Shown one piece after another: positions 5,054-54,649 of a stretch of DNA of 64,000 nucleotides (positions within the stretch are counted from its first letter, which is position 1; each line of letters opens with the position of its first letter). The notes beneath the pieces were generated by a model. That model was not told the DNA's origin and ran no database searches. It saw only the letters and a list, made by a program, of their open reading frames with translations. The position numbers and the translations under genes are program-made. Source of the DNA: Larkinella sp. Its GTDB lineage: Bacteria > Bacteroidota > Bacteroidia > Cytophagales > Spirosomataceae. The stretch spans positions 760,852 to 824,851 of the forward strand of contig NZ_OZ245776.1 in assembly GCF_965227735.1 (NCBI RefSeq), in the 5' to 3' direction.

Positions 5054-7360
5054 TTACTTTCCAACCGCTTCGGGACGATTGCCCTGAACCGACACAATCT
5101 TGAACTCCGTTCTTCGGTTTTTCTGGTGTTTACTTTCGGGACAGGCTACATCATCCGTACAGCCATTCAGGATTTCGGTTTCACCATACCCCTGAGCATC
5201 CAGCCTTGAAGGGTCTATCCCATGGTTAACCAGATAATCGACCGTGGCTCTGGCCCGGTAAGTCGACAATTGCAGGTTGTAAGCATCGTTGGCGCGGCTG
5301 TCGGTGTGCGACCGAAGTTCAATTTTCATTTCCGGGTATTTTTTCAAAAGCGCGGCTAAATGGTCTAGCTCCCGGGCGGCATCCGGGCGGATGAAAAACT
5401 TGTTGTAGTCGTAATAGATGTTCTTCAGCTCAAATACATCGCCCTCACCGTAGATTCCCTGCTGCTTTTCAATCAGTTTGGGATTTTTTCCGGCCTTCAT
5501 TTTCGGGATCTGTTCGCTGTTGGCCGTATAGCGGTTTTTCTGGGTTGTCAGCGTGTAGGGAGCCCCCGGTTTCATCTCAAATTCATATTTCCCATCCGTT
5601 CCGGTCACAACCTGCTGTTCCGATTTGTCTTTATCGTTCCGCAAAGTCACCGTTACGCCCGGAGCGGGTTGCTGGTTTACTTCGGTTTTCACCGTTCCTT
5701 TCACCAGCGTATTTTCACTTTTTTCCAGATAAATCGACACCGTCATCACCGGTCTTTCCGACTGTGTCATGGTCGAAAACCGGATGCTGTTGGGCGAATA
5801 CCCTTCCTTGATGGCCTTAAATTCATAATCGACGTTGGCATCGAGACAAAAGCCGGTTTTGCCATCGACCCCGGTAAAGCGTAAATCCTGATTCACCCCG
5901 GCTTTGATCACCCGAACATCCGCCACGGCAATGGGCTCGCTTGTTTTGGCATCGTACACAAAAATGTTCAGTTGCTTACAGGTTCGGCGGAAACTGTAAA
6001 TATTGTCGTCACTAACCCCCCGTTTCCGATTGCTGCTGAAATAACCGGACGTCCGGTTTCTGGTGGTAATCAGGCCAAAATCATCCTTTTCAGAATTAAT
6101 CGGATACCCCATGTTCTGAACACCTTTAAAAGCGATTCCTTCCCGCAGTTCGGCATAAAACAGATCGAGACCGCCCAAGCCTTCGTGGCCGTCCGAGGAG
6201 AAATAGAGATTGCTGTTTTCGTCAACAAACGGAAACATCTCGTTACCTTCCGTATTGATTTCCTTGCCCATGTTTACCGGCGGCGACCACTGCCCGTCCC
6301 TGAACTCGACCACATAAAGATCGGTTCCGCCAAAACCGCCCGGCATATCCGACACAAAATACAATTTGGTATCATCCGGTGATAAAGCCGGATGTCCGAC
6401 CGAATAATCATTGCTGCAAAACGGAAGTTCCTCAACCTTCTGCCAACTCCCTTTATTGTTTTCAGCGATGTATAGTTTCAGTTTCCGGATGCCATCGTTA
6501 CTTTTTCCGCCTTTCCCTTTTACTGTGTTGTTGCGGGTGAAAATGATCCGGCTCTGGTCTTTGAAAAACGTCATCGGTCCCTCGTGGTATTTCGTGTTGA
6601 GCGTCCGGCTGAATAATTCGGTTTTAGAAAGCGACTTTTCCTCCACAGGTGCTACCTCAACCGCGTCAGCCGTCGCATTACTTCCGCCCAGCGAAGCCGC
6701 CCGGGCCGCGAGTTCCGCGTTATTTTGCAATTCTGCCGTATCGGGATAAAAATACAAGTCCAGAAACGGGGTTTGATTCCAGCCAAAAACCCGTTTGACC
6801 GGTCCCGTTTCGTCGCGTGCTGATACAAAGGCCAGGCCGTTCTGGTAATACATGGGGCTAAAATCGGCCTGGCGGGAGTTGACCGGCAGAAATTCAACTT
6901 TATAGGAAGAAGAATCCTGAAAAAACCGGCTCATGTCCATGTAGGAAACCGTGAATTTCCGGCCCCGCACGTCCTCATTCTGCTTTTCTCCGTATTTGCT
7001 ATAAAGTTTTTGCGAATCGCGGTATTTACCATTGGCGGCCAGTGCCTGTGCGTAGTAGAGGTAATTTTTGGAGTCAGTTTCGGGGAATTCCCGAATCAAA
7101 TCGGCGTAGATTCGTTCGGCATTTTTCGTATCCTGCAACGCGCGATAACTATAGGCCAGTTTGGTGTAAGCCTCCTGCACTTCGGCGGGGTCTTTCTTTT
7201 TATCGAGCCGCAAAAAATCCTCATACGCCCGGGCCGCATTCACATAGGCCAGATTCTCAAACTGTTTGTTAGCCGCTTTCAGTCGTGCACTTTGCGCCTG
7301 GACGGCAAACGCCACGACACTCAGGATGGCACTCAGCAGGAAAAGTCGAACAAATTTCAT
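5054..7360 (-). CDS. OmpA-family protein with TPR, PD40 propeller, carboxypeptidase-regulatory-like and OmpA_C domains (PorE-like)
   Basis: Signal peptide; TPR helices; FSSDGHEGLGGLD PD40 motifs; C-terminal IELRSHTDSR...YN..LS..RA...NRRTEF. Confidence 0.88.
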   Translation of the reverse strand: MKFVRLFLLSAILSVVAFAVQAQSARLKAANKQFENLAYVNAARAYEDFLRLDKKKDPAEVQEAYTKLAYSYRALQDTKNAERIYADLIREFPETDSKNYLYYAQALAANGKYRDSQKLYSKYGEKQNEDVRGRKFTVSYMDMSRFFQDSSSYKVEFLPVNSRQADFSPMYYQNGLAFVSARDETGPVKRVFGWNQTPFLDLYFYPDTAELQNNAELAARAASLGGSNATADAVEVAPVEEKSLSKTELFSRTLNTKYHEGPMTFFKDQSRIIFTRNNTVKGKGGKSNDGIRKLKLYIAENNKGSWQKVEELPFCSNDYSVGHPALSPDDTKLYFVSDMPGGFGGTDLYVVEFRDGQWSPPVNMGKEINTEGNEMFPFVDENSNLYFSSDGHEGLGGLDLFYAELREGIAFKGVQNMGYPINSEKDDFGLITTRNRTSGYFSSNRKRGVSDDNIYSFRRTCKQLNIFVYDAKTSEPIAVADVRVIKAGVNQDLRFTGVDGKTGFCLDANVDYEFKAIKEGYSPNSIRFSTMTQSERPVMTVSIYLEKSENTLVKGTVKTEVNQQPAPGVTVTLRNDKDKSEQQVVTGTDGKYEFEMKPGAPYTLTTQKNRYTANSEQIPKMKAGKNPKLIEKQQGIYGEGDVFELKNIYYDYNKFFIRPDAARELDHLAALLKKYPEMKIELRSHTDSRANDAYNLQLSTYRARATVDYLVNHGIDPSRLDAQGYGETEILNGCTDDVACPESKHQKNRRTEFKIVSVQGNRPEAVGK

Positions 7361-50820: not shown

Positions 50821-51597
50821 TCAATACGTATACCGGATAATTCCTGCAATCATCACGCACAGAAAGGGATTGTTCACCTTGGTTTCTTCGGTTAAAATCC
50901 GCCCCTGTTTATCGTAGATCTTTTCAATTAGCGCAATTTGATCGCTGCTGTTGGGTAAATGTTCGCTGATTTGCCGGCGGTTTCCGGCGAACGTATGCGT
51001 AAACAAGCGAAATGCTTTATCGGTATCCAAATACCATGTTTCGCGGATCAACACATTCTCCTGATATTCATAGACCACTCGCCGACTCAGTTTTTGGTTG
51101 GAATCGAACCACTTTTGCTCTGTTTTTTTTCCGTCTTTATACGTGTATTCGACCAGACCGGTCAGCACGCGTTGCTCCGGATTACGCTGGTTGAAATAAT
51201 TTCGCTCGGTTTTCAGCACCCCATCGGCGTACTCATACTCGGTTTCTTCGTAAGCGACCCATTCGGAAGCACTGCCGTATTTGCCAAACCGGGTTTTTCC
51301 AACCAACTGACCATTCGAATTATAACGGTATTCATAGTACGAATACGTCTCCATTTTCCCGCTGGCGACCCGGCCAACGTAATCGATTCGTGTCAACTTT
51401 CCGGCCGAGTTGTAGGAGTACTTTTCAATGTTGTTGGGGTTATCACAGTTGGTGCCGTTGCAATAGAGCTTTTGGGTCGGCGACGCTTCGTCGTTGTAGG
51501 TATTGCCGCCGGGTTCGATGCCAAATTCAGAAGAGTCACCGGGCTGACAGGCTAGCCACAAGGATGCCGAAAGCAACAGAAGTAGTCGGTTTTTCAT
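50821..51597 (-). CDS. Hypothetical lipoprotein with YD/RHS-like beta-hairpin repeats
   Basis: Lipobox LWLAC from ATG 51597; repeated YSYNSAGKL, YRYNSNGQL, YTYKDGK, YDKQGRIL segments. Confidence 0.75.
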   Translation of the reverse strand: MKNRLLLLLSASLWLACQPGDSSEFGIEPGGNTYNDEASPTQKLYCNGTNCDNPNNIEKYSYNSAGKLTRIDYVGRVASGKMETYSYYEYRYNSNGQLVGKTRFGKYGSASEWVAYEETEYEYADGVLKTERNYFNQRNPEQRVLTGLVEYTYKDGKKTEQKWFDSNQKLSRRVVYEYQENVLIRETWYLDTDKAFRLFTHTFAGNRRQISEHLPNSSDQIALIEKIYDKQGRILTEETKVNNPFLCVMIAGIIRYTY

Positions 51598-51693
51598 AAG
51601 AGAACGGGGTTTGGTCATTTGGAGGGTAGACCCGATAGTCACCTGAACCGTTGGAAGTTACCCTCAAATTATTATCATCATCACACGTATCGT

Positions 51694-52015
51694 AGCCCAA
51701 CGGGCTACCATCACTAGCCCCGGACATCGTCCGGGGAACCCGGGGCGTCGTTCGGGGAACCCGGGGTGTCGTTCGGAGAATCCAGGGTGTCGGGAAATTC
51801 GGGCATCCGAAACAGGTACGATTAACCGCCTAGCACCCTGAAAAGATATATTCCAATTCTATTCAACCCTTTCAGGGTTCTACTCAGACCAGCATAAGCC
51901 ATTAGCCCCGGACGATGTCCGGGGTTAATGATGAAGAGCCCTTCGGGCTATATAATCGCCCCTCACCAACAGCCCAACGGGCTGTCATCATTAGCCCCGG
52001 ACATCGTCCGGGGAA
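51694..52015. repeat. Cluster of three ~45-bp bipartite REP-like elements plus an ACCCTGAAA inverted pair
   Basis: AGCCCnnnGGGCT, spacer, CCCCGGACATCGTCCGGGG at 51694-51738 (+), 51906-51949 (-) and 51971-52015 (+); ACCCTGAAA...TTTCAGGGT at 51835-51878. Confidence 0.88.
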
Positions 52016-52034
52016 TCGGGATGGTCGGGGCGTC

Positions 52035-52262
52035 CGGGTATCCGGAAAATCCGGGGCGTCCGGGGAAATCCGGGACGTTCGGAAAATCTGGGGTATCCTG
52101 GAAATCCGGGAAATCCGGGGCGTTCGGAAAATCTGGGGTATCCTGGAAATCCGGGAAATCCGGGACGTTCGGAAAATCCGGGGTATCCTGGAAATCCGGG
52201 GTGTTCGGAAAATTCGGGGTGCCCGGAAAAATCCGGGGCGTCCGGGAAATTCGAGGAATCCG
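52035..52262. repeat. GC-rich 9-bp tandem array with 45-bp higher-order period
   Basis: CCGGG/GGAAAT-type nonamers; CGTTC recurs at 52076, 52121 and 52166, then TGTTC at 52202. Confidence 0.9.
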
Positions 52263-52378
52263 GAGCGGTTTTATTCAAAAAAATCCTCCAAACAAAAAAT
52301 GCACAGATGGTGTATGGTATTACACCGATGCTGTAATTTCCGGAACGAATACCGGCCCAATTGCCTATACTTGACCCC

Positions 52379-53623
52379 ATGAACCAACCCCTGCAATCCC
52401 AGATCAGTGAGGTCCTACAAAAACTGGAAACCTTGCTTGATCGTGTCCCGGAGTCTGTCGCCAAAGACGTCCGCCAGGAAATCCGCGAATTCCGCCAGTT
52501 GCTCGTTGAAACGCGTTCTCCCCGTTTTGCCCTCGTCGGACGGCGGGGCAGCGGCAAGTCATCCCTGATCAACGCGATTTTTGGGCGGAAGGTCGCGGAA
52601 GTGGGTCACGAAAAAGCCCAAACCGGCGAAGCCACCTGGTGGCCGTATTCGAGCGACATGGGAACCCTCGACATTCTGGACACCCGCGGTTTACAGGAGG
52701 GTTCGCGCCCCGACGAAGCCGATGCCGCAGCCTCTCCCATCGAGTCGATCCTCAACGCCTTAAAAGAGAAAGCCCCGGATTTAATCCTGTTTCTGATCAA
52801 GGCCACCGAAGCCGATGCCGGGATCAACCCCGACCTCGAAGCGCTCACGGAAATCAGTAAAACCGTTGAAAAAGTCCACAATTACCGCCCGCCCATTCTG
52901 GTCGTCGCCACCCATTGCGATACGCTCGAACCCAAAAATGTGCGGTTGCACCAACCGGAAGACGAAGACCCGGACGACCTGAACGAAAAGCTGGAACGGG
53001 TCAAGGTCATTGAAAATCTGCTCAAAACGAAATTCGAAGCCGACCCGTATCTAAAAGAATCGCTGATTACGGTACTGGGCGTCTCATCGTACCAGTCCTG
53101 GAAAAATGACGCTCTTCGCTCCGACGAGCGCTGGCGGATCGATGAATTGCTGGATTATATTTTCAATGAACTGCCGAAAGAAGGCAAACTGGCTTTTGCC
53201 CGGCTGAGTCAGGTTCGTACGCTCCAGGAGTCGATTGCCAACCGGCTCACCAAAGTGGTCGCAGCCATTTGTGGAGGCATTGCCGCCGTTCCGATTCCAT
53301 TGGGCGATATCATTCCGATCACTTCGTTGCAGATCACGCTGATCATCGCCATTGCCTACGTCGCTGGTCGTCAGTTGAGTCAGGATACCGCGAAAGAATT
53401 CCTAACCGCCATCGGGGCTACAATCAGTGCGGGTCTGGTGCTGCGCGAACTGGCCCGGGCTTCCGTCAAAATCTTCTTTCCGGGGGTGGGCAGTGCGGTT
53501 TCCGCCGGTATTGCGACCACCGCAACCCTGGGCATCGGCAGAGCGGCAACCACTCACTTCATTCAAAAGAAAAGCATTGAGAAAGCCAAAGCGGTTTTTG
53601 AAGGGGAACGAAGCAAGGCATAA
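52379..53623 (+). CDS. TRAFAC GTPase (YeeP/YfjP/IRG-like) fused to DUF697/YcjF-like C-terminal helical domain
   Basis: G1 GRRGSGKSS, G3 DTRG, G4 THCD; C-terminal IAAVPIPLGD...LQITLI...; start ATG 52379 follows TATACTTG (52366-52373). Confidence 0.85.
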   Translation: MNQPLQSQISEVLQKLETLLDRVPESVAKDVRQEIREFRQLLVETRSPRFALVGRRGSGKSSLINAIFGRKVAEVGHEKAQTGEATWWPYSSDMGTLDILDTRGLQEGSRPDEADAAASPIESILNALKEKAPDLILFLIKATEADAGINPDLEALTEISKTVEKVHNYRPPILVVATHCDTLEPKNVRLHQPEDEDPDDLNEKLERVKVIENLLKTKFEADPYLKESLITVLGVSSYQSWKNDALRSDERWRIDELLDYIFNELPKEGKLAFARLSQVRTLQESIANRLTKVVAAICGGIAAVPIPLGDIIPITSLQITLIIAIAYVAGRQLSQDTAKEFLTAIGATISAGLVLRELARASVKIFFPGVGSAVSAGIATTATLGIGRAATTHFIQKKSIEKAKAVFEGERSKA

Positions 53624-53698
53624 GCCCCTAAATCCCCTGAAGGGGACTTGGACTCGCCAATTTAGGATGCAAAAGTCCTCTTTAGGGGATTTAGGGGC
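53624..53698. repeat. REP-like inverted doublet between convergent genes
   Basis: GCCCCTAAATCCCCTGAAGGGGACTT (53624-53649) and AAGTCCTCTTTAGGGGATTTAGGGGC (53673-53698), 24/26 complementary. Confidence 0.88.
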
Positions 53699-53702
53699 GT
53701 TT

Positions 53703-54560
53703 TCACTTCCGGTCGATTCCCTCCAACACCCGACGGATCTGGTTGGCTTTGGCCATAAATTCAAATGAATCGTCCAGGTTCTGATCGTCGATAATGGCTT
53801 TAAACTGCTGCAAAAATTCGATGTAATCGGCAAGAGCCTGGGAGACATTCGTCCGGTTCTGGTCGAAAATGGGGGCCCACATTTGCGGAGAACTTTTCGC
53901 CAGCCGCACCGTGGAGCTAAAACCGGTGCTGGCCATGTCGAAAATGGCCTGTTCGTCTTTTTCCTTTTCCAAAACCGTCAGTCCCAACGCAAAGGCACTG
54001 ATGTGGCTCAGGTGCGAAACGTAGGCCAGGTGCAAATCATGCTCCTGTGGGTTCATGTAAAAGAGCTTCATGCCGATGTCGCTGAACAAGGCCTCCACCA
54101 GTTTCAGACTGTCATGGTCGCTTTTCTCCCGGTCGCAAATGATGAGGTTTTTACCGGGCAGCAACTCCCGGAAAGCCGCCCCCGGCCCCGAATTTTCGGT
54201 CCCCGCCATCGGGTGAACAGGCACAAACTGCGACCGTTTCGGATGATTATCAACCAATTGGCAAATCAGTTCTTTCGTTGATCCCAGGTCGGTGACGGTG
54301 GCTCCTTTCGGCAATTGATCCAGAATCCGGGGCAGCAATTCCAGAATGCTGTTGACGGGTGTAGCCAGCACAACCAGGTCGCTGATGTCCACGGCCTCGT
54401 CCAACGGTTTCATTTCGTCGACGATGCCTTTAGCCAATGCCAATTTGCCATGCACAGGAGACGCATCCACGCCGATAAATTTCGCCTTCGGGTATTTCTC
54501 CCGAACCGCCAGCGCAAACGACCCACCCAATAAACCCACTCCAATGATTGTGATTACCAT
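53703..54560 (-). CDS. tyrA: Prephenate dehydrogenase
   Basis: IIGVGLLGGS, TDLGSTK, HPMAGTE, HDLHLAYVSHLSH, GFSSTVRLA; start moved to ATG 54560. Confidence 0.95.
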   Translation of the reverse strand: MVITIIGVGLLGGSFALAVREKYPKAKFIGVDASPVHGKLALAKGIVDEMKPLDEAVDISDLVVLATPVNSILELLPRILDQLPKGATVTDLGSTKELICQLVDNHPKRSQFVPVHPMAGTENSGPGAAFRELLPGKNLIICDREKSDHDSLKLVEALFSDIGMKLFYMNPQEHDLHLAYVSHLSHISAFALGLTVLEKEKDEQAIFDMASTGFSSTVRLAKSSPQMWAPIFDQNRTNVSQALADYIEFLQQFKAIIDDQNLDDSFEFMAKANQIRRVLEGIDRK

Positions 54561-54575
54561 ATTATTTTGCTCCGC

Positions 54576-54649
54576 TTCCCTCTGATGTACTCTGATCAAC
54601 TCTGTGTAATCGTTGTTTCACAGAGTTGATCAGAGTACATCAGAGGGAA
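54576..54649. repeat. CAGAG 10-mer-armed hairpin, copy 2 (arms in reverse order)
   Basis: Perfect 31-bp inverted repeat at 54576-54606 and 54619-54649. Confidence 0.92.

Follow-up and report, generated by a model that had tools for sequence, protein, structure and literature searches.

A gene for a protein of 414 residues (P0001, here called the GTPase) was analyzed in a 64,000-nucleotide stretch of the Larkinella sp. genome (the window; assembly GCF_965227735.1, contig NZ_OZ245776.1, positions 760,852 to 824,851 of the forward strand). It occupies positions 52379 to 53623 on the forward strand, from an ATG at 52379 to a TAA at 53623 (stop counted in), and codes for a G domain of the Era/AIG1 type joined to a helical DUF697 domain of divergent sequence. 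The gene is real and belongs to an annotated GTPase-DUF697 family already on record; neither DUF697 nor the GTPases fused to it have an assigned function. We lean slightly towards the reading that the product, predicted to be a dimerizing GTP switch, controls its DUF697 helices at the inner membrane as a fused analog of the Escherichia coli pair YcjX-YcjF. The locus provides a clean case for study: a self-contained gene with cross-phylum transfer, kept at a single site by one genus under strong constraint, and one lineage of that genus with an empty site (G011) which serves as a natural control.

Domain layout and family membership

An AlphaFold model built from a 42-sequence alignment (pLDDT 84, pTM 0.83) consists of two N-terminal helices, the G domain, an extra beta-hairpin and eight C-terminal helices. 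The N-terminal helix pair (residues 5-42, 52391-52504; helices at 5-20 and 25-42, pLDDT 82-90) precedes the G domain (residues 49-252, 52523-53134), which was delimited by motifs read from the sequence, family invariance and the secondary structure of the model. The G1 motif GRRGSGKSSLINAIFG spans residues 54-69 (from nucleotide 52538, GRRGSGKS being 52538-52561), and G3 reads DTRG (residues 101-104, 52679-52690). G4 is the variant THCD (residues 178-181, 52910-52921), and the probable G5, GVSSY (residues 234-238), is followed by the extra hairpin (residues 236-252). The remainder (residues 253-414, 53135-53620) is an all-helical, Gly/Ala-rich domain with a DUF697-like core at residues 281-367; it includes IAAVPIPLGD (residues 301-310) and a conserved hairpin turn, P305-x-P307-x-x-D310-x-x-P313-x-T315-x-x-Q318.

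All of the motifs on which the earlier note had based its description, namely G1, DTRG, a Thr-initiated G4 and IAAVPIPLGD, are present as described. The alignment of 42 homologs, drawn from several phyla, has 66 invariant columns, among them the G1 residues, G76/H77, D101/R103/G104/Q106/E107/G108, T178/D181 and E184/P185 of the G domain, the six named residues of the C-terminal turn (P305, P307, D310, P313, T315 and Q318), and L20 and P24 of the N-terminal helices. Because the GTPase motifs are invariant in 42 homologs they are not due to chance. Judged from these residues, the protein should be a guanine-specific GTPase of the TRAFAC class with all five G motifs, and it is predicted to be active.

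Searches with Pfam models assigned residues 50-176 to MMR_HSR1 (PF01926; 46.9 bits, cut-off 21.9, 3.5e-12). AIG1 (PF04548) was matched as well, with 31.3 bits against a cut-off of 27 (1.6e-7), and it was matched by all 42 family members. The score for Dynamin_N was 24.6 bits (cut-off 27) and the match was confined to the P-loop (residues 51-76). The DUF697 label (PF05128) proposed in the earlier note is borne out at the level of the family, 40 of the 42 members matching over residues 281-367 (E<=0.01, best 1.6e-7); the window protein by itself falls under the Pfam cut-off. The same architecture, in proteins of about 400-450 residues, is carried by entries annotated as "GTPase family protein" or, in COG, as "predicted GTPase + DUF697 family" (MMR_HSR1 + DUF697). 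Annotated members in Larkinella, Archangium, Lujinxingia and Longimonas are 50-98% identical to the window protein; for plasmid-borne members in Streptomyces, Rossellomorea, Priestia and haloarchaea the figure is 30-40%. The window gene is a member of this family, with the DUF697 region of its subfamily being divergent.

Structural neighbors and the proposed membrane switch

Comparison of the whole model with the Protein Data Bank (PDB) by Foldseek placed immunity-related GTPases (IRG) in all of the top 20 positions (Irga6/IIGP1, Irgb6, Irgb10 and GM4951; E 8e-8 to 1.5e-6), followed by Toc33/34, bacterial dynamin-like proteins, EHD, mitofusins, GIMAP and Era, so that the match is not limited to GTPases of the Era/EngB type. 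The families ahead of Era are membrane-associated dimerizing GTPases, and this ranking of a predicted model points towards a switch of the same kind. Among the hits that covered the G domain only, Toc33/34 were the best (E 1.6e-6 to 1e-5, TMt 0.5-0.57; E 1.6e-6 with TMt 0.56 at the top). In the AIG1/GIMAP and Toc33/34 proteins G domains are held at membranes by C-terminal hydrophobic segments, a single tail anchor where the window GTPase carries a six-helix DUF697 bundle. Toc34 has Thr-His at G4. The AIG1/GIMAP and Toc34 families have DTPG at G3, whereas the window protein has DTRG with an invariant Arg. The plan of G domain, helices and hydrophobic hairpin is common to BDLP, DynA, LeoA/Eleos and mitofusin/atlastin; dynamin-like and mitofusin matches were found at E~1e-5 (5oxf, 5owv, mitofusin 1/2 and EHD). 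Compared with dynamin-like proteins, the window GTPase is half their size or less, has no stalk/GTPase effector (GED) or paddle domains, and has no paired paralog at its locus.

In the mechanism proposed, the G domain would act as a nucleotide-dependent switch, activated probably by nucleotide-dependent dimerization as in Toc34, GIMAP, IRG and dynamin-like proteins. The GTP cycle would govern how the DUF697 helices, Gly/Ala-rich and marginally hydrophobic, are packed or exposed on the cytoplasmic side of the inner membrane, and the physiological role would be in inner-membrane maintenance or a stress response rather than in ribosome assembly. We infer dimerization, membrane association and the stress role, and membrane association in particular because of DUF697 membership, marginal hydrophobicity and the nature of the structural neighbors. 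The C-terminal domain is rich in Gly, Ala, Ser and Thr, with Kyte-Doolittle 19-residue maxima of 1.8-2.1 over residues 290-329. YcjF of E. coli, a DUF697 protein, is located in the inner membrane. The window protein would be a one-polypeptide counterpart of the YcjX-YcjF pair (DUF463 NTPase and DUF697 inner-membrane protein, encoded beside the psp operon), in which a P-loop NTPase is likewise coupled to DUF697. Published work connects the ycjXF genes with the Psp system and with the response to membrane damage and heat (PMC3041696, PMC8125068). If a GTP cycle does control membrane-active helices, the protein would be a minimal bacterial analog of membrane-tethered GTPases (Toc34, GIMAP, IRG, atlastin-like), and a helical domain controlled in this way might explain YcjXF. 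The Larkinella genome holds no YcjF-type gene, and the window GTPase is its only DUF697-like gene.

Several observations weigh against this reading. The window protein alone scores 18.4 bits with the DUF697 model, against a cut-off of 27.7 (E 0.0019, residues 281-367). A rough Hessa-type insertion sum was positive for every 19-residue window, the best being +1.9 kcal/mol here and +2 to +7 in homologs, and AlphaFold packs the C-terminal helices into a compact bundle. The analogy to YcjXF is thematic only, because YcjX belongs to a different NTPase family; it is not an Era/AIG1-type G domain, and YcjX and YcjF are separate proteins. A literature search on DUF697 returned no functional study. Finally, the spread of the family, which occurs in about 1% of Myxococcota and on plasmids in Streptomyces, Bacillaceae and haloarchaea, is patchy and driven by transfer, a pattern that typifies accessory or conflict genes more than membrane housekeeping.

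The likeness to IRG proteins claimed in the earlier note held for domain layout and for the top Foldseek hits, but not for kinship. That the gene is a true prokaryotic homolog or ancestor of the vertebrate IRG (p47/IIGP) proteins, with a shared helical domain and mechanism, we regard as highly improbable. The two share the order of N-terminal helices, G domain and C-terminal helices, their size (414 and 413 residues), a P-loop context of GxxGSGKSS.IN and a Thr-initiated G4, and the Foldseek alignments run end to end. However, the template modeling (TM) scores of these alignments are 0.40-0.48 with root-mean-square deviations of 10-13 A; G-domain-only hits reach TM 0.36, and the IRG scores are little higher. 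The C-terminal domain folded alone (residues 253-414, pLDDT 78) had a best PDB match of E 1.3 and no IRG protein in the top 50. The Pfam IIGP model (PF05049) scored 11 bits (cut-off 24), over the P-loop only (E 0.21), and was matched by none of the 42 family members at E<=0.01. An IRG alignment was prepared from 25 homologs (IIGP1 residues 76-413, checked against PDB 1tqd). Comparison of the family with this alignment by hhalign gave a probability of 95%, but over 63 columns only (beta1 through G1 to G3), and the probability for the C-terminal domain was 0.4%. In a profile search of PDB sequences EngA/Der, TrmE and Era came first and GIMAP and Toc34 next, all of them outranking the IRG proteins. 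Gly2 myristoylation is a feature of Irga6; the GTPase starts with MNQPLQ and the site is absent. The earlier note had taken VPIP for a motif shared with IRG, and the IRG family consensus at that position proved to be AFKAGxLATxPxVG. A local likeness between GFAADLVNIIPSL of IIGP1 and GIAAVPIPLGDIIPITSL was taken as chance because it is unconserved in the IRG family and was not found by hhalign. IRG proteins are fast-evolving and multi-copy, while the window gene is slow and single-copy. Homology was rejected on the Pfam, PDB profile, hhalign and lone-domain Foldseek results, in which agreement went no further than the universal segment from beta1 to G3 and the broad layout. With real kinship so thinly supported, the resemblance therefore lies in the class of G domain and the overall layout: the likeness is architectural and does not amount to family membership. 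The papers that were searched contained nothing on bacterial IRG homologs.

It is rather unlikely that the protein is instead soluble, a regulatory or ribosome-associated GTPase like Era, EngA and YfjP whose C-terminal helices would form a globular domain for interactions and have no part at the membrane. The leading sequence matches (EngA/Der, TrmE and Era), the alignment of E. coli YeeP/YfjP-type "GTPase family proteins" to residues 10-208, the compact bundle of the confident model and the positive insertion sums are all in its favor. Yet all NCBIfam equivalog models, those for the housekeeping GTPases Era, Der, EngB and MnmE being the ones in question, scored far under their cut-offs (Der 36.1 against 306.7, Era 30.8 against 237, YsxC 24 against 124), and no KH or other RNA-binding domain was found in the GTPase by the Pfam scan. 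The gene is absent from nearly all bacteria and therefore cannot be a core assembly factor. The DUF697-like character of the C-terminal domain, as in the inner-membrane YcjF, and the rank of membrane GTPases above Era among the structural neighbors also speak against a soluble protein.

Distribution, selection and the defense question

The gene is present as a single copy in 12 of 13 Larkinella genomes, with orthologs 80-98% identical; the closest species match is L. humicola (98%). In every gene-bearing Larkinella it occupies the same site, between a lipoprotein gene and the gene for prephenate dehydrogenase (tyrA). G011, the most divergent species sampled, has an empty site, with the lipoprotein and prephenate dehydrogenase genes 138 bp apart (locus L025, G011:C3:63152-78012, at about 6863-7001). 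None of 28 other genera of the order and none of 400 further Bacteroidota genomes have it. Its next relatives, 50-59% identical, come from Myxococcota, Bradymonadales and Rhodothermales (Archangium, Vitiosangium, Labilithrix, Polyangiaceae, Lujinxingia, Longimonas and Rubrivirga), and 2 of 200 evenly sampled Myxococcota genomes (about 1%) were carriers. In a maximum-likelihood tree the Larkinella sequences fell into a single clade (support 100) lying within these groups, its sister being a Lujinxingia genome bin (support 90). Because the nearest relatives belong to these groups, one old horizontal gain is likely: a single gain by an ancestor of most Larkinella species from a Myxococcota/Bradymonadales-like donor, followed by vertical inheritance under strong purifying selection. 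GC content and GC at third codon positions (GC3) of the gene are host-like. Ratios of nonsynonymous to synonymous substitution (dN/dS) against nine orthologs were 0.03-0.09, similar to those of tyrA (0.05-0.13) and the adjacent aminotransferase gene (0.03-0.10); the lipoprotein gene gave higher values.

An exhaustive search returned 412 clusters (50% identity level) at E<=1e-30, nearly all of about 400-450 residues. In Streptomyces, Rossellomorea, Priestia and haloarchaea, large plasmids carry distant full-length homologs (30-40% identity). No full-length homolog was found in 50,697 phage records. Carriage of close relatives by phages or plasmids was considered and rejected, the phages yielding nothing and the plasmids only these distant homologs. 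The family is rare, always solitary, about 415 residues in length, and has moved horizontally between phyla.

In every locus inspected the gene is solitary and its neighbors vary by lineage. A conserved partner gene or operon was sought by clustering the neighbors of 70 loci and was rejected, since no family occurred in more than about 10 loci and all of them reflected lineage-specific synteny. An upstream paralog suspected in locus L117 was actually a PAS histidine kinase. Searching PADLOC-DB v2 with the GTPase gave no hit of substance beyond a weak match to the N-terminal part of LeoA (3.9e-6, residues 5-118; the model has 559 positions). Among 128 neighbor proteins from 22 non-Larkinella loci PADLOC recognized generic Ser/Thr kinases only, a class abundant in myxobacteria, and Pfam returned ordinary metabolic and repair enzymes. 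Association with defense islands was rejected on these two scans. In the window, as in the 22 other loci, the neighbors are of housekeeping type, and the gene is therefore not placed in a defense island.

The earlier note had proposed a phage-defense factor and had looked to strain-variable presence and defense-island co-localization as its signs; none of this was upheld, the gene being free of defense or mobile-element neighbors at 22 other loci, fixed and syntenic in the genus, and under purifying selection like its neighbors. A defense role is unsupported; given the patchy, transfer-prone distribution of the wider family, an accessory or conflict role is conceivable. We consider it improbable that the gene is a single-gene abortive-infection effector, in which an infection-triggered GTPase would free its Gly/Ala-rich helices into the inner membrane and depolarize or kill the cell. 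A self-contained lone gene that is rare and spread patchily across phyla and domains would suit such an effector. So would its occurrence on large plasmids, an insertion sequence (IS) element or CHAT protein nearby in some hosts, the immune GTPases among its structural neighbors, the LeoA match and the glycine-zipper-like helices. Against it stand the lack of a substantive PADLOC family match, the housekeeping neighbors at 22 independent loci with only generic kinases recognized by PADLOC, fixation in the genus as a single syntenic copy that does not vary between strains, dN/dS as low as in adjacent enzymes, retention of 50-59% identity across phyla with 66 invariant columns, and the lack of full-length homologs in phage records. 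Distinctly improbable, too, is the broader proposal that GTPase-DUF697 proteins are mobile, single-polypeptide, GTP-gated membrane-perturbing modules, a prokaryotic functional counterpart of the membrane-targeting immune GTPases of the IRG/GIMAP class that would act in abortive infection or another conflict and would have been domesticated and fixed in Larkinella.

Two contexts outside Larkinella were recorded. Near several of the myxobacterial copies in loci L068-L098 (Polyangiaceae/Labilithrix) lie genes for O6-methylguanine methyltransferase, HhH-GPD glycosylase, SprT-like and DUF2786/DUF7168 proteins (4-5 of the 22 loci); this neighborhood is probably lineage-specific synteny. On a Streptomyces avidinii plasmid (L114; NZ_CP108617.1, 262803-275993) a full-length homolog of 39.5% identity lies among hypothetical genes, beside an IS21 element and the gene for a CHAT-domain protein of 1135 residues; none of the other contexts seen resembles a conflict or variable region.

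The locus and its flanking elements

The GTPase gene is divergent from the lipoprotein gene (50821-51642, reverse strand) and convergent with the prephenate dehydrogenase gene (tyrA; 53703-54599, reverse strand), and from this orientation it forms its own transcription unit. The statement of the earlier note that it stands alone and interrupts a housekeeping context agrees with this arrangement and with the empty site in G011: it is a separate unit inserted between the two genes. Alignment of 10 Larkinella upstream regions revealed the conserved blocks ACCGATGcTGTAATTTCCGGAA and CTATACTTGA (52324-52374, forward strand). The latter (52365-52374), conserved among Larkinella orthologs, is a promoter-like block 5 nt before the ATG and contains TAtaCTTG, which resembles a -7 box and accords with the -7 box noted earlier; its distance from the ATG implies a leaderless transcript, with a predicted start at about 52378, or a very short leader. 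No sigma-70 consensus site was found near the start of the GTPase gene.

The repeat tract upstream and the doublet of repetitive extragenic palindrome (REP) type downstream, both reported in the earlier note, are real. The tandem tract (52033-52264, core 52063-52200) was resolved by Tandem Repeats Finder (TRF) into a 45-mer in 3.1 copies (96%) with nested periods of 9, 18, 36 and 45 bp. It enlarges the spacer between the lipoprotein and GTPase genes to 736 bp, compared with about 140-380 bp in other Larkinella; it is strain-specific and probably has no part in the function of the GTPase. Spurious open reading frames of 148-193 residues arise from it on both strands. The REP-like palindrome (53624-53698) has 26-nt inverted arms (53624-53649 and 53673-53698; 92% complementary), and its core 14-mer GCCCCTAAATCCCC occurs 156 times (76 + 80) in the 7.7-Mb genome and therefore belongs to a repeat family scattered through the genome of this Larkinella. 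From its position between convergent genes the palindrome could act as a bidirectional terminator. An Rfam scan of the flanking repeats gave hairpin matches only, all sub-threshold.

Further repeats lie nearby. A 21-bp tandem repeat (51727-51792; 3.1 copies, 88%) is found beside a hairpin-forming inverted repeat (51900-52013) with 29-nt arms of 97% complementarity separated by 50 nt, whose core, CCCCGGAC(G/A)(A/T)(T/C)GTCCGGGG, has only about 6 copies in the genome. A strong hairpin in the spacer between the prephenate dehydrogenase and aminotransferase genes (54576-54649) gave sub-threshold Rfam matches to miRNA precursors (best E 8e-7; 43 bits, cut-off 88 bits). The putative lipoprotein (273 residues) matches no Pfam model and is evolving far more rapidly than its neighbors, with 61-94% identity within the genus and only 44% in the GTPase-less species G011.

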